The position numbers were made by a program, and so were the translations under genes. Positions 20,055 to 60,514 of a stretch of DNA of 64,000 bases are shown one piece after another; position 1 is the stretch's first letter; the number at the start of each line of letters is the position of its first letter. The DNA is taken from IMG/VR virus record IMGVR_UViG_3300042346_001601; one strand, given 5' to 3'. The stretch is from a virus (lineage: Duplodnaviria; Heunggongvirae; Uroviricota; Caudoviricetes). The notes beneath the pieces were generated by a model. That model made no database searches. It was not told where the DNA came from and worked only from the letters and a program-made list of their open reading frames with translations.

Positions 20055-20747
20055 TTAATTTGATAAACTTAAAGGCAAAAAGAGAAGTGTGGGATTTTTC
20101 TTTTGAATGTCGACATCTGGATATTTTTTTCTAAATTCCATAACGTCAAACTTTTTGGTGATTAAATGGTGGCCGTTTTTGGTGGGGATAATAGCCTCTA
20201 TTTTCGGACCCACCTTGTGGCCGACAGGAAACCCAGCTTCATCAAAGTCGACTACGGTGATGGGTTGGCATCGATACTCCAAATAGGACATCATCATAGG
20301 ACTTGGAGTTTGTGACCCATCAACATCCACAATCCATCTTTTCTCGTGGGTTTGGATTTGGCCAACAACAGAATCGAAAAGATTTTTTTGGTTCGCTTGA
20401 CCATTTCGAATTCTTTCTGCCAAGGCAACCATCATGCTCAAAGAAACATCTTGGTGATTTTGCTTTTGAACATGAATATAAGCACGGGCTTTAAACAGCT
20501 CGCACAATTGTTTAATTTCATCGTATCTACGGTCTAAGTGGTCAACACTTTCGATACAGTAGGTTTTGATTGTTCTGACCGATTGGTGGTTGTCCCTTTC
20601 TTCTCCGGGCTGGTCCTTTTTTCTCTTTAACACATAGAGCATGTAAAAATCTCCAGTTTTCTCAAAATTGAGCAGAGGTTTTATTAGATGAAGGTTGTCG
20701 ATCATGGTGTTGTAATTTGTAGCAAATATACGAAAAAGATCCGACAA
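20055..20747 (-). CDS. hypothetical protein
   Basis: 230-aa ORF immediately downstream of kinase/phosphatase pair; no motif recognised. Confidence 0.5.
   Translation of the reverse strand: MSDLFRIFATNYNTMIDNLHLIKPLLNFEKTGDFYMLYVLKRKKDQPGEERDNHQSVRTIKTYCIESVDHLDRRYDEIKQLCELFKARAYIHVQKQNHQDVSLSMMVALAERIRNGQANQKNLFDSVVGQIQTHEKRWIVDVDGSQTPSPMMMSYLEYRCQPITVVDFDEAGFPVGHKVGPKIEAIIPTKNGHHLITKKFDVMEFRKKYPDVDIQKKNPTLLFLPLSLSN
20723..20732 (-). promoter_or_regulatory. putative promoter element (sense CGTATATTTG) upstream of ORF 20055..20747
   Basis: exact match to Bacteroidetes -7 consensus TAnnTTTG (TATATTTG). Confidence 0.3.
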
Positions 20748-21620: not shown

Positions 21621-22261
21621 TTAATTTATTTTCTGAAATGTGGTAACCAGATCTGTTGTAAGTGGAGATGGACTGCACTGAACCTGCTGAACGATCTTAA
21701 AACCAAGTCGATGAAGTTCTTTGTTAAGTTCTTCATGATCTAGATTTGCTCTGCCACCCTTGTTTTTAAAGGACAGATCTTCACCTCCTCCAAACCAGGC
21801 GTGATGCAAAGTTGCCTTTCCCCCTATATTTAAAACTCGATGCATTTCCGGCAGATAATCTCGAATAATATCCCAGTGAATATGAACAAAAGAATCGAAG
21901 GAAACAATTGCATCGAAGGATGAACTTGGGAAGCAGGTCAAAGATTTTCCATCGTTCATGTGGTAACCGTGGATTCTATCTCCAAATCTATCTAAACAAA
22001 ATTTAAGAGGAACAGAGTTGTATTCAACCAAACTCAGGGAAGGACAGTGATTCAAGAAAAATTCTGTGATTCTACCACCTCCGGCGCTATTTCTAAATTT
22101 CTATTTCCCAGATGGGGAACATAAAGAGGATAAATTAGATCAGTCCAAAGCTGCTCAGGGGAAGAAAAATTAGTTGACCAGTATTTAAGATCGTTTTTAT
22201 TTTCCCAAATTGCAGGATCATTCCAGAATTTCTGCTCTTCTAAATTGATATGGACTTGCAC
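21621..22261 (-). pseudogene. class I SAM-dependent methyltransferase interrupted by a frameshift inside motif I
   Basis: ORF 22052..22261 ends ...NRNLEIAPEVV and alternate frame continues SAGGGRITEFFLNHCPS... into ORF 21621..22055 (..FDAIVSFDSFVHI..VLNIGGKATL). Joining them restores motif I (N)LEIGAGGG. Either sequencing error, programmed frameshift or decay. Confidence 0.5.
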
Positions 22262-22264
22262 TAG

Positions 22265-23335
22265 CTATTCGTTTTTAAGTAAAAATCTGTTGCTGATGAC
22301 CTTGAAAGAAATAGTTGTGTCCATGCTGCGAATGACCAATCCTTCCCTCTCGGCATTGGGGTTGAGAACAGATTTCCCTTCAGTCTGCTGTAAGAGTTCT
22401 TCGATGGTGTCTGGTAGAAGAAACTCAGTCCCGAGAATCGGTACGGTCTCAAATCCTAAGTCTTCCATAAGGGAGATAAAAGATCTGAGGTTGAATCTTT
22501 CCTGTTTATCAATGTCAAAAGCATTGTAGAAACGAACGGTATGACCTTTGAGCTTGTAAGGATTCTTCTGAATTCCTTCCCCGATCAATTCACCCTGAAT
22601 GCAAAGGTTAAGACCAGTATCCAGTAGCTTCTTCTTGATGTCCATTTCACGGGCCACTTTCCAGAAAGTGTTTTCCCGCTTAGGCCGTTCGATCCCATCA
22701 TCGCACAGTTCCGTTCCTGACACAAATTCACCTGGTTCTGCCAACTCGAGATTTCTAGAGCAAACCCCAAATTCACCGTCTTTGACATAAAATGATGCGG
22801 AACTGCCGTCCAACTTTTCGGTTGCATAGAACTGGTGTTTACTGGTGATCTTCCATTCTTCGTATTCTCTAGACAAATTTTGGACCCTTTCCTCATCGGT
22901 TCGGCGGAGAAAAGAAGGAAAGTAGCCTTTTACTTTGCCAGCCAGTTCGGCGGGAATGGGTGGTTCGTATTTAATCACCCCAAGAATTTCGGTTACATCC
23001 ATGCCAAGATATACATTTCCCCTAACGGGAAGCACATTCAGGGGCATGAGCAATCCCTGGGATAATTCTCCTTTCAAACGGATGGTCTTGAGTCTAAATC
23101 CCTCGACATCTCCCATTTTCTTGAAAGATGATTTTCGGAGAAACTCAAATTCATCCCGGACCGGAAGAAAAGAATCAATCTCAAAATAAACACAGGTATC
23201 TCCAGGTTTAAACTCTCCTTTCTTGGTTACCACCTGCCACCCATCAACAACAGCCAATTCGATGGCGTCTGCTCCTTTGATGGACTTGATCTCCTTGACC
23301 AATCTGATGGAAGCTAATTTTCTGGTTTGTTCCAT
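22265..23335 (-). CDS. ATP-dependent RNA ligase, DraRnl/NgrRnl (Rnl5)-like with N-terminal OB-like domain
   Basis: N-terminus LASIRLVKEIKSIKGADAIELAVVDGWQVVTKKGEFKPGDTCVYFEIDS typical of this ligase family; nucleotidyltransferase motif I ATEKLDGSSASFYV (KxDG). Confidence 0.8.
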   Translation of the reverse strand: MEQTRKLASIRLVKEIKSIKGADAIELAVVDGWQVVTKKGEFKPGDTCVYFEIDSFLPVRDEFEFLRKSSFKKMGDVEGFRLKTIRLKGELSQGLLMPLNVLPVRGNVYLGMDVTEILGVIKYEPPIPAELAGKVKGYFPSFLRRTDEERVQNLSREYEEWKITSKHQFYATEKLDGSSASFYVKDGEFGVCSRNLELAEPGEFVSGTELCDDGIERPKRENTFWKVAREMDIKKKLLDTGLNLCIQGELIGEGIQKNPYKLKGHTVRFYNAFDIDKQERFNLRSFISLMEDLGFETVPILGTEFLLPDTIEELLQQTEGKSVLNPNAEREGLVIRSMDTTISFKVISNRFLLKNE

Positions 23336-23618: not shown

Positions 23619-24068
23619 CTAAACGCTATGCGGGATGTTAACTCGAACACAGGATTGAGACTGTCCCTCATTCATCAAAAAATTGTTGATGTATCCCATG
23701 ATGTTAGCAGAGCCAATTGGATTGGCCGAATGGGTGTAAACTAAGGGGAAAATAATGCCCGATGATTTTTTCCCTACCCTGCCCTCGAGGGTGTCGTATT
23801 TATTCAGGTAGTAATCGACCAACCATTTTGCACAGTCCATCTCAGTCTTTTCAAGGATGTTTGAGTAGTTGAGCTCGTAATTAGGTTTAACATTGTTGAA
23901 ATATTCCTCCATGACAGTATCACCCAGATCGTGGTCCAGTGAAATGATCTCAATGTTTTCTAATCCTATATCAGTGACAACTTTTACAAACTGCTCGTAA
24001 TTTCGAACAACTATCCAGTTTTCATCGTTTGGGGTTCGAATATCATCTAAGTAAATTCTTTTTTTCAT
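23619..24068 (-). CDS. hypothetical protein, copy A of duplicated gene (paralog of 27968..28417)
   Basis: ~75% aa identity and ~80% nt identity to ORF 27968..28417 (MKKRIYLDDIRTP...ISLDHDLGDT...YTHSANPIGSANIMGYINNF). Confidence 0.55.
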   Translation of the reverse strand: MKKRIYLDDIRTPNDENWIVVRNYEQFVKVVTDIGLENIEIISLDHDLGDTVMEEYFNNVKPNYELNYSNILEKTEMDCAKWLVDYYLNKYDTLEGRVGKKSSGIIFPLVYTHSANPIGSANIMGYINNFLMNEGQSQSCVRVNIPHSV

Positions 24069-24098
24069 TTTTTGTGAGCTATTTTTTGCATTCTTGTG

Positions 24099-24230
24099 TA
24101 GTCAGGACAGGATTCGAACCTGTACGTGGGTTGAGTCCTTTGAGAATAACACCTTTCGGTCTCTTGAGTCTCTCCTGCAACATCCCCCACAGCTTTAGCT
24201 TACTTGCTTCTACCATTCCGCCACCTGACT
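24099..24230 (-). tRNA. tRNA-like element, 132 nt: canonical acceptor stem and T-arm, noncanonical/expanded centre
   Basis: Minus-strand RNA 5'-AGUCAGG UG GCGGAAUGGUAGAAGC...ACAGG UUCGAAU CCUGU CCUGACU A-3': 7-bp acceptor stem, U8, tRNA-Leu-like D-loop GGAAUGGUAGA, perfect T-arm GGUUCGAAUCC; but ~80 nt between D- and T-arms (possible intron or long extra arm closed by GUGGG/CCCAC). No anticodon arm could be assigned by eye. Confidence 0.45.
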
Positions 24231-24310
24231 ATAATTCACCTGCCTTTTATCTCCTCATATATTCCGCCCAAAATTATTATTATAATTATAAGTAAAAACG
24301 TCTGCATATT

Positions 24311-24601
24311 CTAAAAATGCTCCCCGAAGCCGTGTTGAGTGGCTACCAACTGTGGGTTTTCCAAGTAGCGACCAATCTCTTTGTATCCAGCCTCGATGCT
24401 TGTAAATGCAATACTCTTACATCCAACCTTGACGATACATCCTCTGTCTAGCGCGTGAATGCCAATCTCCCAGCGTTTAAGGTTTTCAATCCTTCTGCGT
24501 TGCTCTCCTTGTTCTTTGCTTTCGCATTGCTCTGTTGACTTTTCAAAGCACTGTGGCATTTCTCCGACAGGTTCTACTCTTAATGTTTGTTCTTCGTTCA
24601 T
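24311..24601 (-). CDS. hypothetical protein flanked by the two tRNA-like elements
   Basis: 96-aa ORF. Confidence 0.4.
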   Translation of the reverse strand: MNEEQTLRVEPVGEMPQCFEKSTEQCESKEQGEQRRRIENLKRWEIGIHALDRGCIVKVGCKSIAFTSIEAGYKEIGRYLENPQLVATQHGFGEHF

Positions 24602-24635
24602 TTTGATTGGGTTTAAATTGTTTTTATATTTTTAG

Positions 24636-24715
24636 TAGTCAGGACAGGTACTGCCCCTGTTGCTTGTTCTTTTGCTTTTATGCTCACACATGAGTTACTT
24701 TTACTCCACCTGACT
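24636..24715 (-). ncRNA. degenerate tRNA-like element (80 nt) sharing acceptor-stem and T-stem sequence with element at 24099..24230
   Basis: 5'-AGUCAGGUGG...ACAGG GGCAGUA CCUGU CCUGACU A-3': identical 5' 10 nt and 3' 13 nt to the first element; internal region does not fold into D/anticodon arms. Confidence 0.3.
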
Positions 24716-24720
24716 GTTTG

Positions 24721-25284
24721 TTAATCTAATTTACATTTTATTTTATCAAAATCCTTTGTTCCCAAATGAACTGAACTATCTACAGTCATATTAGAACGGG
24801 TTTCATCTTGTTTCCAAAATTCATGGCGAATAACTTGAACAATATCATAAGTTACTCTTGCACTTTCATCTACTACATCGGGATTGTAAATACCAAAACT
24901 TCCGCCATTAGCAAAGTTTTCTTGTAAAAGCATGTTAGCAGCATTATGTAATATTTTATCTGCTTCATCTCTAATACTGTGGTATTTTTCATAATCAATA
25001 GATAATTTTACATCCCCAACATCAGTCCAAGTACGAATTTCTTCTCCATTACCCCAATGACCTTTGGTTTTAATGTAACCATCTCCAATTTCTATCACCT
25101 CACCACGTTCGGTACTATCACCAACTTCTATTTCTTTTTTAGGTCGGAGTTTATCCCGTAGAACATTGTAATATGTTGGATGGTCTTTAATTACCCATAA
25201 TTGGCCGATACCGATACGGGAGTACATATCTAACGCCTGTTGAATTAGTCTAAGTTGTTCGTTTGTAACTTCTAATGTTGCCAT
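24721..25284 (-). CDS. hypothetical protein
   Basis: 187-aa ORF. Confidence 0.5.
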   Translation of the reverse strand: MATLEVTNEQLRLIQQALDMYSRIGIGQLWVIKDHPTYYNVLRDKLRPKKEIEVGDSTERGEVIEIGDGYIKTKGHWGNGEEIRTWTDVGDVKLSIDYEKYHSIRDEADKILHNAANMLLQENFANGGSFGIYNPDVVDESARVTYDIVQVIRHEFWKQDETRSNMTVDSSVHLGTKDFDKIKCKLD

Positions 25285-25818: not shown

Positions 25819-25846
25819 AACTTTTATTTTTATAGCGTAAATATAC

Positions 25847-27938: not shown

Positions 27939-27948
27939 TATTTTTTTT

Positions 27949-27960
27949 ACAAATATACGG
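27949..27960 (-). promoter_or_regulatory. putative promoter element (sense CCGTATATTTGT)
   Basis: exact TAnnTTTG match (TATATTTG) 11 nt upstream of ATG at 27938. Confidence 0.3.
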
Positions 27961-27967
27961 AAAAATC

Positions 27968-28417
27968 TCAAACAAAGTGTGGAATGTTCACACGAACACA
28001 AGATTGAGGTTGACCCTCATTCATCCAAAAATTATTAATGTATCCCATAATGTTGGCAGATCCGATTGGATTTGCCGAATGGGTATACACTTGTGGAAAA
28101 ACGATACCAGATGATTTTTTTTCTGACCTACTTTTCTGAGTAAGGTAATTGTCAAGATAGTGATTGACCAACCACTTAGCACAATCCATTCCCGTCTTTT
28201 CAAGGATGTTATTGTAATCCAATTTGTAGTTTGGACTCACGTTATTGAAATATTCATTCATCGCTGTATCACCCAAATCGTGATCCAAGGAAATTACATC
28301 TATGTTTTCTAATCCTATATTTGTTACCGCTTCCACGAACTCGTCATAATTCCTCACAACCACCCAAATATCTTCTTTGGGGGTTCTAACATCATCTAAG
28401 TAAATTTGTTTTTTCAT
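27968..28417 (-). CDS. hypothetical protein, copy B of duplicated gene (paralog of 23619..24068)
   Basis: MKKQIYLDDVRTP...ISLDHDLGDT...YTHSANPIGSANIMGYINNF. Confidence 0.55.
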   Translation of the reverse strand: MKKQIYLDDVRTPKEDIWVVVRNYDEFVEAVTNIGLENIDVISLDHDLGDTAMNEYFNNVSPNYKLDYNNILEKTGMDCAKWLVNHYLDNYLTQKSRSEKKSSGIVFPQVYTHSANPIGSANIMGYINNFWMNEGQPQSCVRVNIPHFV

Positions 28418-28856: not shown

Positions 28857-28876
28857 ATTTTTTATTTTTATTTATG

Positions 28877-28890
28877 GTATAAATATACGA
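28877..28890 (-). promoter_or_regulatory. putative promoter element (sense CGTATATTTATACC) upstream of ORF 28419..28856
   Basis: near-identical to 14-mer at 4588-4601. Confidence 0.3.
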
Positions 28891-28931
28891 ACGAATTTTC
28901 GTGTCTCCAAATGACGGAGTTATAACCAATG

Positions 28932-34079: not shown

Positions 34080-35156
34080 TTAAATTTTATAAAATTGGGG
34101 TTTTATTATTTTCCAAATTAATGAGGAGTATTCCTTACGATCGTACATTTTAAATAAAAGGGAAGGATTTTTGTATTTTTTTGCTTCTTCGGCAAAACTA
34201 GCTCTCCACTTGAAATCTTTTATGCTCTTGAGGGTGTCGAAGATAGCCAAATACTCCTTCTCTACCTCCTGGTATTGACTTATCAGCTCGTTGGCATATC
34301 CTGTCACCTTTCCATAAAACTCATCGGGGGTGTCGACAAGGATGGCTGACATGTCACCTCCGGTAGACAAGACCTCCCAGATCGAAGTGGAAGTAACATT
34401 TGTCATTATTCTGTGCAACCTGAGATACTCCTCAAATTTAATTTTCATCCGAAAGTTACCAGGTTGAAATCTAAGAACGAAACCCTCCTTGTTAACATCG
34501 TTCTGTGCCTTCAAACTACGGTATAACTGATCGGAAAAGTTAAAATGCTGCTTTGTTTGGGTGATGTCTTTATCAGAGACACCGTTGAACTTAAAGACAT
34601 CACAGGCCATAGACCAATGTAATTCTTCTTCGTTGGTTTGTTTGTAAAAATTATTGGGGACCGCAGATAAAAATATGACTTTTTCTTCCCCGTAATTTAC
34701 AACGATACGATTTTCCGGGTAGATGATCTCAACCAAGTACGCGTATTCTTTTATCCAACTATCCAACTTGTATTTGGATTGAACCATCTCTAATCCCTTT
34801 ATTGCCTGGTCTGAGGTAAAAGAACCCCGGGTAGCCATAATCCATTCACCCTCGTAGTAAAACAGTATGCCTAAAGAGCCATCCGCCTTTTCCTGCACAT
34901 ACACACAGTCTCCTTGGGTTGGAATTTGTCCTTTGTTCACAATTTCTTCGTAGTTGAAAAACTTTGGAAAGGGTTTAACAAGGATCCCGCCGGTAACATC
35001 ATCGGTAATAAGACCTCTACACATAAGGGTCACATCGTCCCATAATCCATCGTATTGAACCTTTTCGCTGTAGTTCCAAATTGTCAGCGGAAAGCGAGGA
35101 TGGGACTGGGAGTGGAGCAGGCCCCTTTCCTTATAATCTTCTAGTACGTTTCTCAT
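34080..35156 (-). CDS. RNA ligase, T4 Rnl1-like
   Basis: MCRGLITD / PFPKFFNYEE / VQEKADGSLGILF align with T4 Rnl1 ECRGIMFE / PMEKFFNLNE / LTKEDGSLVSTY (motif I lysine KxDGSL). Confidence 0.8.
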   Translation of the reverse strand: MRNVLEDYKERGLLHSQSHPRFPLTIWNYSEKVQYDGLWDDVTLMCRGLITDDVTGGILVKPFPKFFNYEEIVNKGQIPTQGDCVYVQEKADGSLGILFYYEGEWIMATRGSFTSDQAIKGLEMVQSKYKLDSWIKEYAYLVEIIYPENRIVVNYGEEKVIFLSAVPNNFYKQTNEEELHWSMACDVFKFNGVSDKDITQTKQHFNFSDQLYRSLKAQNDVNKEGFVLRFQPGNFRMKIKFEEYLRLHRIMTNVTSTSIWEVLSTGGDMSAILVDTPDEFYGKVTGYANELISQYQEVEKEYLAIFDTLKSIKDFKWRASFAEEAKKYKNPSLLFKMYDRKEYSSLIWKIIKPQFYKI

Positions 35157-41875: not shown

Positions 41876-42928
41876 TTATTCTAATTCCTCGAGAGAGTTG
41901 GAGAGATATTTGGTGATTTTATAAGGATCCGCATTTGATCCTGGTCTCCTGTCTTCAAGATAACCCAACCACTTATCAGAGGTAGAAATGGGTATTCTGA
42001 TTGATGCTCCTCTATCACTTACACCCCAACTGAATTTCGAAATGCTTTGGGTTTCGTGCTTGCCGGTAAGTCTCAGATGATTGTCCGATCCATAGAGGGA
42101 AATAGCAACATCGTGGGTTTTTTCCAGCACTTGACAAATGCTGTTAAAAAATTCTTCCCCTCCTGTTTCTCTCATTCTATTATTTGAAAAATTGGTGTGC
42201 ATTCCTGATCCGTTCCAATCTTCCTCTGCTCCCATGGGCTTGGGGTGAAAGTCAACTTTGATCTGGTAATTTTCTGCAATTCTCATGAGCAAAAATCTAG
42301 ATATCCAAAGATCATCTGCGGCCGTCTGTTCTCCCTGGCCAAAAACCTGATATTCCCACTGACCGAGCATCACTTCGGCATTGGTGCCTGTGATCTGAAT
42401 GCCACAAGAAAGACAGGCATCCAAATGTTCCTCTGAAATATTTCTGCCAGCGGAATAAGGATGACCGACTGAACAATAATACTTGCCCTGAGACTCGGGT
42501 GGGTTGAAATTTTCAAATCCTACCGGCCGATTACTATTTTTATTGAACCACCTGAGCACATACTCTTGCTCAAACCCAAACCAAAGAGCATGAGAATCCT
42601 TTCCGATCAAGGCTCTAGTATTGGAAGAATGTGGGGTGCGGTCTGGATTTAGAACCTCACACATTACGAGATAGCAAAAGCCCATTCTGAGAGGATCTGC
42701 ATAAACCCTCACTGGTTTTAGAATCAAATCTGAGAAATTACCTTCAGCCTGCCGGGTGGAACTTCCATCAAAAGACCATTCTGGAAGTTCTTCTGGTCTA
42801 GGTTTTGCGTGTTGGGGCGAAAGAGTGTTCAGATTTGACGGGGTATAATCGAAAATCTTTACTTTTGATCTCAAATTTGGTTCGGGTTGATATCCATCTA
42901 ACCAAACATACTCCAATTTTAATTTCAT
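41876..42928 (-). CDS. glnII: glutamine synthetase, type II (eukaryote-like GSII)
   Basis: Near-collinear with eukaryotic GSII: YVWLDG, LPEWSFDGSST, FGFEQEY, YYCSVG, ITGTNAEVMLGQWEYQ, KPMGAEEDWNGSGMHTNFS, SIRIP, YLEDRRPGSNADPY. Confidence 0.9.
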   Translation of the reverse strand: MKLKLEYVWLDGYQPEPNLRSKVKIFDYTPSNLNTLSPQHAKPRPEELPEWSFDGSSTRQAEGNFSDLILKPVRVYADPLRMGFCYLVMCEVLNPDRTPHSSNTRALIGKDSHALWFGFEQEYVLRWFNKNSNRPVGFENFNPPESQGKYYCSVGHPYSAGRNISEEHLDACLSCGIQITGTNAEVMLGQWEYQVFGQGEQTAADDLWISRFLLMRIAENYQIKVDFHPKPMGAEEDWNGSGMHTNFSNNRMRETGGEEFFNSICQVLEKTHDVAISLYGSDNHLRLTGKHETQSISKFSWGVSDRGASIRIPISTSDKWLGYLEDRRPGSNADPYKITKYLSNSLEELE

Positions 42929-47859: not shown

Positions 47860-49020
47860 TTATTTTTGTGATTCGATAACGTTTTGAATCACAAATTCAA
47901 TATCATCATCGGTTAAAAATAAATGTAAAGGTAAACTAATAATTTTCTCGCTCAGGTTCAATGAATTCGGATTCAACCCAAATTGTGATTTGTACATATC
48001 ATAATGGGTATTATCACGATAATGAACTCCTGGATATATCCCACGAATATTTAAAAATTCCATAGTTTTGTTTCTTTCTTCCACAACAATTTGATACAAA
48101 TGCCTAGAAGAAAGTTCTGTGTACGGAGAAACTTTAACTGACTGGATGCCTGCAGATTGAAATGACTTTTCATACATTTGGCAGATTTCTCTTCTTCTGG
48201 TGTTATCCTCTTCAAGATATTTCAAACCAACTAAAGCCATCGAAGCCATCATAGAATTACCATGATATTTGAAACCAACATCAACGAGATCATATTCCCA
48301 TTTATAACTTCCTTTGTCGTGTGATCTTTGGTAAGTGTCTTTAGAAATTCCAAGCCAAGATAATTTTCTGGCTAATACGTCATAATCTTCATTCTTGAAA
48401 CAGATCATTCCCGAATCTGCGGTCGGAAGATTTTTGACCGCCTGAAAACTAAAAATAGAAACATCAGCATCTAAACCAACATGATCTTTCGAGTAACCAA
48501 CACCAACCTCTGTTTTGTTTTTTATCCAGGTTCCAGCCATATGTGCGGCATCTAAAATAATTTTAAGGCCTTTGCGTTGGCAAAAATTTACTATTTCATC
48601 GAACCTCCCGGCATTACCCCCAATTCCCACAAATAAAACAGCTTTGGTTTTTTTGGTGATTTTTGATTCTACTGATTTTGGATCCAGACATAGAAATTCA
48701 TCTACGTCTGCAAAGATTGGTCTCAGTCTTTCGTACATTATTGCGTGATTTGAAGACACAAAAGTTAAGGGGGACGTGATAATCTCGTCTCCTTCTTTCC
48801 ATTTATTGGCGTCTTTTAAAATTTTTAAGGCAAGATGCAAACCAGAGGTGTTCGAATTTAGAAAATGCGCATGCTTAAATCCGGTGTATTTTTTCCATTC
48901 TTCTTCAATCTGCTGAGTTTTAAAACCTAAACCTGTCCATCCTATTTCCATACACTCTTGCATATGTTCCCAGATTTCTGATGTTCTGAACTTAGGTTTG
49001 AATAATTGAATATTTTTCAT
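47860..49020 (-). CDS. DegT/DnrJ/EryC1/StrS-family PLP-dependent sugar aminotransferase
   Basis: 386 aa; DAAHMAG...; PLP-lysine context SIFSFQAVKNL; overall collinearity with ArnB/FdtB-type enzymes. Confidence 0.85.
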   Translation of the reverse strand: MKNIQLFKPKFRTSEIWEHMQECMEIGWTGLGFKTQQIEEEWKKYTGFKHAHFLNSNTSGLHLALKILKDANKWKEGDEIITSPLTFVSSNHAIMYERLRPIFADVDEFLCLDPKSVESKITKKTKAVLFVGIGGNAGRFDEIVNFCQRKGLKIILDAAHMAGTWIKNKTEVGVGYSKDHVGLDADVSIFSFQAVKNLPTADSGMICFKNEDYDVLARKLSWLGISKDTYQRSHDKGSYKWEYDLVDVGFKYHGNSMMASMALVGLKYLEEDNTRRREICQMYEKSFQSAGIQSVKVSPYTELSSRHLYQIVVEERNKTMEFLNIRGIYPGVHYRDNTHYDMYKSQFGLNPNSLNLSEKIISLPLHLFLTDDDIEFVIQNVIESQK

Positions 49021-57504: not shown

Positions 57505-57944
57505 TGGTGGAGCTGGGCGGATTCGAACCGCCGTCCTGCTAGGTAATTCCATGAAACTCGTTCACAGGCTTAGTCCATTTTTCTAAACAGACAAATCTTT
57601 ACCTCCTAGTTTTTGACTGTGATAGGAGATAATCCACATCATCGATCCCTACAGCGATCTGAAGGGTATTGGACCGGAGCCCGCAGGGTTACTGAGGATC
57701 GACGGATTGTGTGGTACTGTTAACCCTTTTTCCCACCCTCGTGACTTTCTGTTCCTGGGTGTCACCCCCCGAGGTTTAGGCTGCCAAGGCAACTTCAACC
57801 GGCTCCGCTGAACCTAGTCCAGCCAAAGCAAAAAATGGATTTTCGCCATTTAAGAAGTACTTAGGATATTTAGGTGCTTCCAAAGCTAGCACCGCCTGCA
57901 TCATGTCAAAGAACTTATGCCTCCAGTCGATTCCTTTCAGCCCC
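57505..57944 (-). ncRNA. ssrA: tmRNA (ssrA), ~440 nt
   Basis: 5' end GGGGCUGAAAGGAAUCGACUGGAGG (cf. E. coli GGGGCUGAUUCUGGAUUCGACGGG), 3' tRNA-like end GGUUCGAAUCCGCCCAGCUCCACCA, internal tag reading frame ...GSAEPVEVALAA-UAA ending in the canonical ALAA degron. Confidence 0.85.
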
Positions 57945-58048: not shown

Positions 58049-60514
58049 ATGAAAAGAATATCCAAGAATTACAAAAAATTAAGATTATTCGAATCTGAGG
58101 AAGAACTAAAAGTCCCAGATGATGAAAAGCTTTGGCAAGCATACGGTGAGGATATGACCAAAGCAGCGAAGGAGGGAGAGATAAATGAAGTAATTGGAAG
58201 GGATAAGGAATTGGAACAGTTGCTTCGCATTCTGGCCAGGAAAACCAAGGATAATCCAGTTTTGGTTGGAGAGCCGGGCGTTGGAAAAACCGCTATTGTG
58301 GATAAGCTTGCTCTTTTAATGGCAAGCGATAAATGTCCCGGTTTTTTAAAGGGGAAAAAGTTAATAGATTTGACCTGGGCATTTAAAAAAATAGTTAATG
58401 GAGGTTATTTACCCCTTTTGGCCCGTGAAATTGAGGAAGATAACTTGATTATTTTTGTGGACGAACTCCATTCTCTACCTAAAGCAAGTTACGATGAACT
58501 CAAACCCTTTTTGGCTAAAGCCAAACTTCATATGATCGGTGGTTCCACTTATAGTGAATATGGTCAAACTATTGAGAAAGACGGAGCCATGGAAAGAAGA
58601 TTTCAACCGATCAAAGTTGAAGAGCCTACCTACGAGGAATGCATGGAAATACTTAGAGAAATCCAAGAAAAATATGGGGATTGGCATCATGTTAATTATT
58701 CACCAGAAGCCTTAGAATCCTTTTATAAACTATCTAAGCAGTATATTAAAGACCGATTTTTGCCAGATAAAGCTATCGACTTGATGGACGAATCCGGTGC
58801 ACGAATTCGCATTAAAAATGCCCCGGATGCGGAGGTTGCGAATCTAGAAAAGAAAAATTTAGAACTCCTAGACCGGATCAGGCAAAAGACGGCAGAAGGT
58901 GACTATGATGCTGCTGCAGATCTATCAGATGAAAAAGAAAAGATAGAGAGTCGGCTTGAAAAAATGGCTGCGAAAGGTCAAATGGGACCTAAAATTACCG
59001 TCACTAAAGAAATGGTGGAAAAACTAGTGGCAGATAAAACAGGGATTCCTGTTGAAACGATGAAAAAGGGCAGTAAGGCAATCCTAAAAGGAATGTCAAG
59101 CAGACTGAAATCAAAAGTTATCGGTCAAGACGAGGCGGTAGAGACCGTTGTTAGAACAATTAAAAGAAACAGGTCGGGTCTTAAAGACCCTAATAGACCT
59201 GAAGGGGTATTTTTATTCGTGGGCCCTACTGGGACAGGTAAAACCTATTTGGTGAAAAAATTGGCTGAGGAGCTTTTTGGATCTAGGGAATCTAAATTGA
59301 TTAGGATTGATATGAATGAATATTCGGAGGCTCATACAGGATCTAAATTGTTTGGATCACCTCCCGGTTATGTAGGTTATTCGGAAGGAGGCAAACTAAC
59401 AGAGCAAGTCAGAAGAAACCCTTATTCGGTAATTTTGCTAGATGAGATCGAAAAAGCAAACCCTCAAGTTATACAATCCCTGCTAGGGGTGCTAGAAGAT
59501 GGAAGGATGACGGACGGGCAAGGGAGAACGGTTGACTTTACAAACTGTGTTATTATCATGACTTCTAATGTGGGATCAAAAACAGGATCTAAAAAGGTTA
59601 AATCAAAGGAACCCAGAAAAGCGATTGGTTTTTTGGTTAAAGATGAACCAGAAGATGAAACAAAACAGACTGGAGCAGAATCACCTGAGGAAATCAAAGC
59701 AAGAGTCGATGCAGCGATCAAAAAAGAGTTTTCGCCCGAATTTATTAATAGAATAGATGATATTGTTATTTTTCAGTCAATAGACCAAGAATCAATAAAA
59801 AAGATTGCAGAAAAAGAGCTCGAGAAGGTGGCAGATAGGATTAAAAATACCCAAGACATTAATCTGACTTGGGGAACTTCGGTTTACAAGTTGTTACTTA
59901 AACACGGATTTGACCCTGAATATGGGGCTAGACCCCTTAGAAGAGCAGTGGAGAAATATATCAAGGACCCTCTAGCCAATTTTATAATCGAGGAAGAGAT
60001 TGAGGAAGGATCCAACCTCAAAATTGATTACGATTCCTTGGCAGATGAGTTAGTCATTAACGGAAAGAAAATTTCAGAGTTATCTGAATCTAGACTCAGA
60101 AAAATCCACAAAAGTTTTTCTTTGTTCGAATCTACAAGTCCTAGAAGAATCAATAGTTTTTCAGAATTTAGCGATAGATTAGACGAGGCGGAAACAGAAA
60201 GGGAGAAAGAAGAGGAAAAGGGAAAACCAGCTCCTTTGCCTAAACCACTGCCTAAACCACTGCCTAAACCTACGCCTAAACCACAGCCTAAGCCTACTCC
60301 TAAACCTACACCCAGTGAGGATGAAGATGAGGATGAGGATTTTGATCCAGATGCAGAACCGGTCCGAAGAATAACTCCTCATCCGTCAATTGCACCACGA
60401 ATTAAAGTTCCTTCTCATGCTCCTGGACCCCAAGCAATAAAGAAAAAAGCTTCAGAGATGGATGTGATCAAAAGGTACATATCAGAACTCAAAAAAAGAA
60501 AACCATTTTACTAA
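58049..60514 (+). CDS. ClpC/ClpB-family two-ring AAA+ unfoldase lacking the N-domain, with short middle coiled coil and proline-rich acidic C-terminal tail
   Basis: D1: IGRDKELEQLLRILARKTKDNPVLVGEPGVGKTAIVDKLA; D2: VIGQDEAVETVVRTIKRNRSGL...FLFVGPTGTGKTYL...ILLDEIEKANPQV; sensor-2 GARPLRRAV; C-terminal PKPLPKPLPKPTPKPQPKPTPKPTPSEDEDEDEDFD. Confidence 0.85.
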   Translation: MKRISKNYKKLRLFESEEELKVPDDEKLWQAYGEDMTKAAKEGEINEVIGRDKELEQLLRILARKTKDNPVLVGEPGVGKTAIVDKLALLMASDKCPGFLKGKKLIDLTWAFKKIVNGGYLPLLAREIEEDNLIIFVDELHSLPKASYDELKPFLAKAKLHMIGGSTYSEYGQTIEKDGAMERRFQPIKVEEPTYEECMEILREIQEKYGDWHHVNYSPEALESFYKLSKQYIKDRFLPDKAIDLMDESGARIRIKNAPDAEVANLEKKNLELLDRIRQKTAEGDYDAAADLSDEKEKIESRLEKMAAKGQMGPKITVTKEMVEKLVADKTGIPVETMKKGSKAILKGMSSRLKSKVIGQDEAVETVVRTIKRNRSGLKDPNRPEGVFLFVGPTGTGKTYLVKKLAEELFGSRESKLIRIDMNEYSEAHTGSKLFGSPPGYVGYSEGGKLTEQVRRNPYSVILLDEIEKANPQVIQSLLGVLEDGRMTDGQGRTVDFTNCVIIMTSNVGSKTGSKKVKSKEPRKAIGFLVKDEPEDETKQTGAESPEEIKARVDAAIKKEFSPEFINRIDDIVIFQSIDQESIKKIAEKELEKVADRIKNTQDINLTWGTSVYKLLLKHGFDPEYGARPLRRAVEKYIKDPLANFIIEEEIEEGSNLKIDYDSLADELVINGKKISELSESRLRKIHKSFSLFESTSPRRINSFSEFSDRLDEAETEREKEEEKGKPAPLPKPLPKPLPKPTPKPQPKPTPKPTPSEDEDEDEDFDPDAEPVRRITPHPSIAPRIKVPSHAPGPQAIKKKASEMDVIKRYISELKKRKPFY
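60235..60312 (+). repeat. tandem ~12-nt repeats (cctaaaccactg-like) encoding (PKPx)n
   Basis: cctaaaccactgcctaaaccactgcctaaacctacgcctaaaccacagcctaagcctactcctaaacctacaccc. Confidence 0.7.

Follow-up and report, generated by a model that had tools for sequence, protein, structure and literature searches.

Small RNAs that imitate transfer RNA (tRNA) are known singly, as transfer-messenger RNA (tmRNA), Y RNA, mascRNA, the tRNA-like structures at viral 3' ends, and RNAs C and D of phage T4. YrlA, a bacterial Y RNA, is a non-coding mimic of the D-, T- and acceptor arms of tRNA and is found near RNA ligase genes. The function of T4 RNAs C and D, also called species 1 and 2, is still unknown (PMC9697503). 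The locus described here lies in a 64,000-nucleotide stretch of a viral record (IMG/VR IMGVR_UViG_3300042346_001601, Caudoviricetes), referred to as the window, and consists of two tRNA-like elements, Element 1 and Element 2, with an open reading frame (ORF) for 96 amino acids, ORF96, between them. The original prediction, struck by the identical ends of the two elements, had offered three explanations, i.e., a tRNA gene duplicated by an inserted element that carries the ORF, a decoy or fragment beside a tRNA that has an unusual intron, or a pair of tRNA mimics. The last is the one that the evidence supports: the elements are probably separate genes for tRNA-shaped small RNAs unable to decode codons, and members of one large phage family, here called the AGUCAGG-scaffold family after its acceptor stem.

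24099..24230, minus strand: Element 1, 132 nt, tRNA-Leu-derived tRNA-like RNA gene, predicted to be non-decoding ('El1 type')
24311..24601, minus strand: ORF96, conserved hypothetical protein of 96 aa between the elements, with 117 homologous clusters
24636..24715, minus strand: Element 2, 80 nt (24715->24636), 'type B' cloverleaf RNA gene

Both elements have the extent and strand first given to them, and they share a 5' 10-mer and a 3' 13-mer, each of which occurs exactly twice in the window, at these elements. A 7-bp stem beside a hairpin of 5 bp with a 7-nt loop has about 55 chance occurrences per strand, and only these two have tRNA-type or family-type loops; it is these loops and the conservation across genomes, and not the stem/T-arm topology alone, that make the elements more than a product of chance. 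The 3' 25-mer of Element 1 (ACAGGTTCGAATCCTGTCCTGACTA) is found exactly in at least 119 IMG/VR viral contigs and in 14 contigs of metagenome-assembled genomes (MAGs), several of which are binned as Chitinophagaceae, Sediminibacterium or other Bacteroidota, and about 5 kb of a single locus (L009) contains five exact copies besides two or more that are near-exact. Over the fetched loci the census came to 221 oriented elements (212 unique sequences, 141 loci), with lengths of 54-197 nt and a median of 103 nt. Nearly every copy is complete, running from AGUCAGG through, mostly, UGGCGGAAU(U)GGUAGACGC and a centre to the 25-mer, and the consensus of the family D-arm is GGCGGAAU(U)GGUAGACGC. The scaffold, to which both window elements conform, comprises the acceptor AGUCAGG/CCUGACU, the T-stem ACAGG/CCUGU, and a discriminator A73 followed by C, with a type-specific centre and no anticodon arm. 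Members score 28-50 bits on the Rfam tRNA model and match no other family, and permissive thresholds applied to the window and nine related loci gave only weak tRNA matches on the elements. The D-arm is GGAAUUGGUAGAC in the genuine tRNA-Leu genes that phages have at the same loci, with other acceptor stems. The family derives from class II tRNA-Leu and keeps its 12-bp acceptor/T-stem helix, and most members also keep the D-arm and T-loop.

The centres are RNA modules specific to a type, conserved within it and unrelated between types. They range from about 6 to about 130 nt and fall into some 175 unrelated types among the 212 sequences, 151 of them singletons; some members have insertions in the D-loop as well, and in the shortest (54 nt) there is hardly any centre. 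One member alone (L030, 5644-5731) is near-canonical, a tRNA-Leu(CAA) scoring 49.8 bits; the anticodon arm is missing from all others, which have a median of 12 nt at its place where 17 are needed. In 40 of 132 Leu-type members, versus 13 of 138 shuffles, exactly 2 nt separate the final helix of the centre from the T-stem, which is the position of a variable arm. Variant T-stems under the same acceptor are compensated (AGAGG/CCUCU, ACAAG/CUUGU, GCGGG/CCCGC), weaker evidence since this set was filtered for pairing, and within a single cluster one D-like stem position shows four different Watson-Crick pairs, some loops being kept over covarying stems. A MAFFT alignment of the 5' 28-mers, intended for a covariation test of the D-stem, was ungapped and uninformative, and a motif search in the first 16 nt of the centres gave no strong motif (TAAG, 21 versus 12 expected).

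Neither Rfam 15 nor the searchable literature, literal sequences included, describes this family. A blastn search of the region against GenBank phages gave no match, and with a scaffold-only query just one uncultured GenBank record spans a whole element, the 25-mer being essentially absent from records of cultured phages. Two loci (L169, at about 1002-1070, and L115, downstream of its element) also carry aberrant tRNA-like elements with the acceptor GGCUAUG.../CAUAGCC and the T-loop UUCAAAU, so that the phenomenon is not confined to the AGUCAGG scaffold.

Element 1 reads, on the minus strand (24230->24099), AGUCAGG-UG-GCGGAAUGGUAGAAGC-A-[79 nt]-ACAGG-UUCGAAU-CCUGU-CCUGACU-A, and its parts are as follows.

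24224..24230, minus strand: acceptor 5' strand AGUCAGG, paired perfectly with 24100-24106
24206..24221, minus strand: D-arm GCGGAAUGGUAGAAGC, class II tRNA-Leu type, G18G19 present
24191..24204, minus strand: mini-hairpin at the place of the anticodon arm, 3-bp stem and 8-nt loop AAGCUAAA
24126..24190, minus strand: long arm of 65 nt, placed as a variable arm would be; conserved core AAUGUUGCAGGAGAGACUCAAGAGACCGAAAGGUGUUAUUCUCAAAGGACUCAAC
24107..24123, minus strand: T-arm ACAGG-UUCGAAU-CCUGU, the commonest of the family (176 stems, 172 loops)
24099..24106, minus strand: acceptor 3' strand CCUGACU and discriminator A73 (24099), the next base (24098) being C

The perfect 7-bp acceptor stem, the canonical T-arm and the tRNA-Leu-like D-loop had all been recognized correctly, and the D-arm matches what genuine tRNA-Leu genes of phages carry in related loci. 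The centre, which had been thought unassignable, resolves into a 14-nt mini-hairpin and the 65-nt arm, which closes 2 nt before the T-stem, at the place of a variable arm; after the long arm comes GU, and then the T-arm. The flanks, AU on the 5' side and A73-C on the 3' side, are those of the family. Near-identical homologues of the El1 type are present in a viral contig (L156) and, adjoining a real tRNA, in a metagenome contig (L158), in unrelated contexts and with different neighbouring genes. In the alignment of these three sequences, 2 of 54 columns vary in the core versus 18 of 79 outside it, and two double changes turn the closing stem of the long arm, GUGGG/CCCAC, into AUGA/UCAU in L156. 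The stem of the mini-hairpin, in a pairing read by eye from the same alignment (the consensus fold of the program pairs those columns otherwise), goes from AGU/GCU to AUU/GAU in L156, a compensated change, and its loop is kept as AAGCUARA. A 45-aa ORF (24079-24216, minus strand) crosses Element 1. L158 has this frame open too; in L156 an additional T in the D-loop interrupts it with a stop codon, and the conservation of Element 1 is therefore not protein-coding. This ORF is probably spurious.

Covariance models, to which the original prediction had looked for a decision, divided the pair, since Element 1 passes the gathering score of the Rfam tRNA model (31.5 versus 29 bits, and only by way of a 65-nt local insertion that skips the anticodon arm) and Element 2 has no Rfam match at E<=10; ARAGORN, also named there, called no tRNA genes in the window. 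The score of Element 1 is one of several features that would fit a decoding tRNA-Leu, either interrupted by an intron or over-long in its variable arm, of which Element 2 would be a decayed copy. Element 1 has A73 and a Leu-type D-arm, and together with the long arm that closes just before the T-stem these are the marks of a class II tRNA-Leu, which Element 2 does not share. In a by-eye reading, the anticodon-equivalent triplet at positions 34-36 (24195-24197) is one of leucine, UAA in the window and UAG in both L156 and L158, and the family includes the near-canonical tRNA-Leu(CAA) mentioned above. However, the loop that holds this triplet in the El1 type is non-standard by the same reading, with 8 nt and a C at position 33, and Element 1 has neither the 5-bp anticodon stem nor the 7-nt loop with U33 of a canonical tRNA, nor is it called by ARAGORN. 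The intron itself finds no footing in the family: no member has exon-like halves of an anticodon arm, and centres of about 6-130 nt share no boundary motif that resembles a splice site. With Element 2 conserved and covarying, rather than decayed, the decoding explanation is largely refuted and we regard it as very improbable.

Element 2, taken at first for a fragment with a degenerate interior, is a complete member of a conserved subtype, type B. Its acceptor is AGUCAGG/CCUGACU followed by A, as in Element 1, and its three arms are the following.

24692..24706, minus strand: D-like arm GAGU-AAAAGUA-ACUC, stem covarying (A-U / U-A), loop invariant
24665..24690, minus strand: central arm UGUGU-GA-[GCAUAAAAGC]-AAAA-GAACA, an expanded loop with an inner hairpin
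24644..24660, minus strand: T-like arm ACAGG-GGCAGUA-CCUGU, stem covarying in L173, L174 and L196

The 3' 22-mer of Element 2 is exact in nine further contigs, a degenerate pattern added more, and the resulting alignment of 15 sequences, Element 2 included, has the plan AGUCAGG-NR-GWGU-AAAAGUA-ACWC-R-UGGGU-GA-[small variable-length hairpin]-AAAA-GACCA-AGCA-ACAGG-GGCAGUA-CCUGU-CCUGACU-A. The four-helix cloverleaf pairs 93.7% of the cells of this alignment versus 23-48% with the 3' partners slid. Both sides change in 9 of 21 pairs, and the observed values were attained by 0 of 500 shuffles; covariation was not significant on the initial nine sequences and became so with 15. All four helices covary, the acceptor included (AGCUAAG/CUUAGCU in L176 and L195), and in the central-arm stem Element 2 has U-A at a consensus G-C; the pair next to it is A-U or U-A in other members. 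Inner hairpins differ in length from member to member, and many end in a GNRA loop. AAAAGUA and GGCAGUA are the same in every sequence, parts of both loops being fixed by the collecting pattern, which required GGCAGTACC. The T-arm keeps its 5-bp stem with GGCAGUA instead of UUCRANY, and the D-loop AAAAGUA has no GG (G18G19). Element 2 represents a second subtype, which has D- and T-loops of its own and an enlarged central loop, and is not a decayed copy. The same loop pair is also seen in apparent decoding tRNAs of three loci (L171 10054-10101, L184 9434-9481 and L186 844-890 regions), which have normal 7-nt anticodon loops (UUG, GCA and GGG) and are not called by ARAGORN.

The explanation put forward first by the original prediction, that a mobile element with ORF96 had entered a tRNA gene and duplicated its ends, drew its appeal from one ORF flanked by two elements with identical ends. 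ORF96 is indeed real and conserved. Integration into a tRNA gene would, though, leave one full gene and one 3' fragment, and both elements are complete at their 5' and 3' ends, which leaves a target-site duplication unsupported; moreover, they are of different conserved subtypes. Because the shared 10 and 13 nt belong to a scaffold of which hundreds of independent copies exist, the identity of the twins at their ends does not come from a duplication at this locus. No integrase domain was found among nine neighbouring genes scanned with Pfam, and ORF96 homologues of other phages have an element downstream only. The family data refute such a duplication and leave it with next to no probability. 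A separate idea, that the elements are attachment sites, was rejected: exact 3' ends lie nearly all in complete elements, with one clear 5'-truncated copy (L099).

Searches of ORF96 against Pfam and PHROG gave no match, and its AlphaFold model (pLDDT 77) matched no fold in the PDB (best E = 0.76). In five viral-contig loci an element begins about 11 nt after the protein match of an ORF96 homologue, and L134 shows the same adjacency; in L169 the element is 8 nt past the stop codon of the homologue, and in L170 the element is 8 nt past the stop of a second small ORF that lies in between. The element has a different centre at each locus. Distant ORF96 homologues have no element after them. Two of these (L166 1783-1892 and L167 1762-1875) have a different structured leader downstream, the stems of which are compensated (GAGCCGAAGAG/CUCUUGCUC versus GAGGUGGUGAG/UCACCCCUC) and in which a pseudoknot GCCCUAA/UUAGGGC is possible. 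The features that adjoin the elements in the window are these.

24721..25284, minus strand: upstream gene, 187 aa, its stop codon 5 nt before Element 2
24231..24310, minus strand: spacer between ORF96 and Element 1, 80 nt, with scaffold-like fragments GGCGGAAU and AGGCAGGUG read from the sequence
23619..24068, minus strand: downstream gene cREC_REC (cyclic-phosphate RNA-repair receiver domain; Pfam PF20274, E = 5e-18)

How such RNAs might be made is suggested by their flanks. The base at -1 is U in 82% of the family (n=218) versus 71% of the ordinary tRNAs of the same loci (n=236), and that at -2 is A in 73% versus 61% of the same sets, against a background of 28% T and 35% A. The base after the discriminator is C in 97% of the family (n=218), mostly in CAA or CUA, and ordinary tRNA genes in the loci checked have C there too. 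Bacterial RNase P prefers a U at -1, and members lie inside or beside tRNA clusters on the same strand. As the genuine tRNAs of these phages share the U at -1 and A73-C, the family RNAs are probably products of the tRNA maturation pathway: RNase P would cut the 5' end, the tRNA 3'-end machinery would cut the 3' end, and CCA would then be added, a course of maturation that we consider likely for the predicted RNAs.

Where an element lies between genes, its cutting would also sever the polycistronic messenger RNA (mRNA), and therein lies another explanation, namely that the elements are processing signals acting in cis (t-elements or tRNA punctuation), the excised RNA having no function of its own and the centre being neutral filler shuffled by recombination. 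Placement is tight, both in the window, where Element 2 starts 5 nt past a stop codon and Element 1 ends 30-34 nt ahead of an ATG, and in the family (156 members searched), where 54 of the 119 with an upstream ORF scored have a stop codon at most 20 nt before them and 48 of the 121 with a downstream ORF scored have an ATG 10-40 nt after them. The acceptor/T minihelix, which RNase P and RNase Z need, is the sole part kept universally, and members with almost no centre exist; plant mitochondrial t-elements work in this manner (PMC1920247). Yet many members sit in pure tRNA arrays with no intervening ORFs (L009, L135), and centres are kept within a type more strongly than the scaffold is, with covarying helices and invariant loops, which is unlike neutral filler. 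Any tRNA gene within an operon would, besides, have the same side effect on the mRNA. Punctuation as the whole purpose of the elements is accordingly judged unlikely, and separate RNA genes remain the preferred reading.

Gene order around the elements has been reshuffled. The window has the order 187-aa gene, Element 2, ORF96, Element 1, cREC, and L134 has ORF96-like gene, element, element, 187-aa gene; relatives of the 187-aa gene have nothing tRNA-like after it. Orthologous sites with near-identical upstream and downstream flanks hold at least five unrelated centres of 90-133 nt, and the same centre type is found in different genomic contexts. The simplest mechanism for both shuffled order and swapped centres would be recombination via the identical arms of the scaffold, and that these arms serve as homology for the exchange of centres and neighbouring gene cassettes has, from the sequences, about an even chance of being correct. 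The spacer 24231-24310 is about 70 nt longer than its counterparts in homologous loci (8-11 nt), and its fragments look like remnants of the 5' half of the scaffold and may be the scar of recombination between elements.

Promoter/stem-loop repeats are known from T4-type phages, and by likeness to them the scaffold might be mainly a DNA-level recombination device, with 25-nt arms in hyperplastic regions driving the exchange of cassettes and centres. The shuffled gene order, the retention of ORF96 and the element that follows it as a pair while the centre changes, the scaffold-like fragments of the spacer, and a second promoter-plus-hairpin motif that adjoins many members are all in keeping with such a device. 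Compensatory changes in all helices speak instead for selection on the RNA fold, and the kept D- and T-loops, the U at -1 and A73-C speak for selection on processing and not on DNA identity alone. As the main explanation the device is distinctly improbable; it complements the interpretation of the elements as RNA genes rather than excluding it. The second intergenic motif, TTGACAGCTCGGAAAGACGAGCAA(C)AT, has a -35-like hexamer and a covarying hairpin stem (GCTCG/CGAGC, GCTTG/CAAGC, CCTCG/CGAGG) and is placed directly upstream of elements in, e.g., L024, L029, L052 and L068, and downstream in L103, L077 and L156; the window has no copy of it. A recurrent motif of related loci, TTGACAGCTCGGAAAGACGAGC, is absent from the 64-kb window.

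The carriers are uncultivated phages, many of them large, with freshwater Bacteroidota as their probable hosts. The exact ORF96 protein also occurs on a 267-kb contig, which makes the phage of the window a jumbo phage, and the same phage recurs in several lake metagenomes with its elements unchanged, and these recurrences are hence uninformative on how the elements vary. One population variant (L163) is identical over the elements and has about 90 substitutions concentrated in an RNA ligase gene (window 22300-23200), a cluster that looks like a recombination patch. The MAG bins, A-rich leaders with no Shine-Dalgarno sequence together with TAnnTTTG-type promoters, and a tmRNA tag that starts GEN... 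are suggestive of a Bacteroidota host. The tmRNA of the window (57505-57944, minus strand; Rfam 72.1 bits, CCA encoded) was missed by ARAGORN, and its reading frame gives the tag GENPFFALAGLGSAEPVEVALAA*. A motif (C)GTATATTT(G/A), which resembles the Bacteroidota -7 element TAnnTTTG and is modestly enriched in the window (8 matches versus 3.2 expected), stands upstream of minus-strand genes at 20716-20737, 25823-25846, 27943-27964 and 28868-28896 (minus strand). Directly after Element 1 come the cREC gene and then an RNA ligase gene, and the genes of RNA repair in the window, all on the minus strand, are these.

22265..23335, minus strand: RNA ligase of PHA02142/RNA_ligase type, adjoined by a methyltransferase gene at 21621..22055 (minus strand)
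34080..35156, minus strand: RNA ligase of T4 Rnl1 type
27968..28417, minus strand: second cREC_REC gene, a paralogue of 23619..24068 with 75% DNA identity

So dense a set of RNA-repair genes suggests that the host attacks tRNA or other RNA. One homologous ORF96 locus adjoins a Tad2-like anti-defence gene. Other phage genes of the window encode a ClpB-like AAA+ chaperone (58049-60514, plus strand), a glutamine-synthetase-like protein (41876-42928, minus strand) and a DegT-type aminotransferase (47860-49020, minus strand).

If the elements are RNA genes, the scaffold would provide processing, stability and tRNA-like recognition, and the centre would be the working part. Septu and retron-Eco7 cut the variable loop of the class II tRNA-Tyr, and phage tRNA-Tyr, whose loop differs, resists or competes (PMC13096335). 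By analogy, the specific function that we favour, if tentatively, is that of a decoy or sponge, directed at host factors with a grip on the tRNA body and chiefly at the tRNA-cleaving nucleases of immunity: the conserved part is what proteins gripping the tRNA body and processing enzymes see, the variable part is at the place where class II tRNAs are attacked, and the genomic company is one of RNA repair and anti-defence. A bolder and more doubtful version would have the tRNA scaffold act as a display system, an invariant handle with hundreds of exchangeable RNA modules serving as anti-defence decoys or inhibitors. Its targets would be immune nucleases that recognize the body of a tRNA and cleave either anticodon regions or the variable arms of class II tRNAs, like those of Septu (PtuAB) or the effectors of retrons, and, were it true, the extreme diversity of the centres would be the trace of an arms race.

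Several points tell against this whole interpretation. Its functional part is drawn from genomic context, and the genes that adjoin members are very diverse, with no fixed protein partner found across the family among the diverse genes downstream. A decoy lacking the part that a nuclease cuts may not bind that nuclease. The D-stem of Element 1 has one G.A mismatch. In Element 2 the lack of G18G19 and of the T-loop consensus probably makes a standard elbow or leucylation impossible, and one mechanism may not suffice for both subtypes. The census was seeded with exact strings, and its pattern required AGUCAGG, carried by every collected member; the invariance of the acceptor is therefore in part a product of how the sequences were selected, and in type B the acceptor can covary. 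The centres are only mildly more stable in folding than shuffled ones (mean z -1.1), and the near-centreless members suggest that the scaffold alone may be the functional unit, with the centre merely tolerated.

The significance of the family is that one scaffold carries some 175 unrelated, individually conserved modules in hundreds of phage genomes, often in several copies each. It also accounts for the exact 25-nt intergenic repeats of these phages, which are able to drive cassette shuffling. If the RNAs are made as predicted, then standard tRNA finders miss a whole class of phage small RNAs (ARAGORN makes no call on the window elements and miscalls other members with odd anticodons), a natural counterpart exists to the engineered 'tRNA scaffold' used for RNA expression, and there are concrete candidates for RNA-based counter-defence in a conflict over tRNAs that already involves the RNA ligases, cREC proteins and tmRNA of the window.

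Among known systems, class II tRNA-Leu (RF00005) is like the family in the 7-bp acceptor, A73, the Leu D-arm, the 5-bp T-stem with a UUCGAAU loop, the arm at the variable position and the leader/trailer context; it differs in that the family has no anticodon arm and a centre of arbitrary length and sequence, Element 1 being marginal on Rfam and Element 2 lacking the D- and T-loop consensus. tmRNA likewise has a tRNA-like acceptor/T domain with a large insert replacing the anticodon region, but the elements are much smaller and have no G3.U70 alanine identity, pseudoknot ring or conserved tag frame, and the Rfam tmRNA model matches only 57505-57944 in the window, not the elements. Plant mitochondrial t-elements, tRNA punctuation and mascRNA-type signals share with them a tRNA-like structure by coding regions and a predicted cleavage by RNase P and RNase Z, whereas the family also occurs in ORF-free tRNA arrays and its centres are conserved and type-specific. 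YrlA is linked to RNA-repair operons, and Element 1 adjoins cREC and RNA ligase genes, although the ends of YrlA RNA form the Ro-binding stem and its acceptor is closed by a loop, unlike the AGUCAGG family; the Y RNA families of Rfam gave no match on the elements, and no fixed link to repair genes was found across the family.

T4 RNAs C and D also lie in a phage tRNA cluster, and RNA C, the interior of which is large and structured, ends in a canonical T-arm (CCGGGUUCGAAUCCCGG), but there is no sequence relationship, each is single-copy, and they form no family with exchangeable centres; on Rfam, RNA C is not scored as tRNA and reaches 17.5 bits on tRNA-Sec only. The 'tRNA-Undet' genes of pT24, a Tenacibaculum phage and thus a cultured jumbo phage of Bacteroidota, are in a tRNA cluster too, with normal acceptor, D- and T-arms and an aberrant expanded anticodon arm. 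They are a near-identical pair (L199; LC168164.1 192032-192110 and 192399-192477) with an anticodon-arm hairpin UUCGCGGGU-AUAUU-ACCCUCGAA that has no anticodon loop, and a tRNA-Pro beside them carries the T-arm sequence of the AGUCAGG family, ACAGGUUCGAAUCCUGU. They differ from the AGUCAGG family in their acceptor stem and in having only two copies, and are not of the family by sequence. None of T4 RNAs C and D, tmRNA, YrlA, the t-elements or the pT24 tRNA-Undet genes is homologous to the family, and while tRNA-like non-coding RNA is a kind already known, the unusual feature here is one scaffold with a very large set of exchangeable modules.

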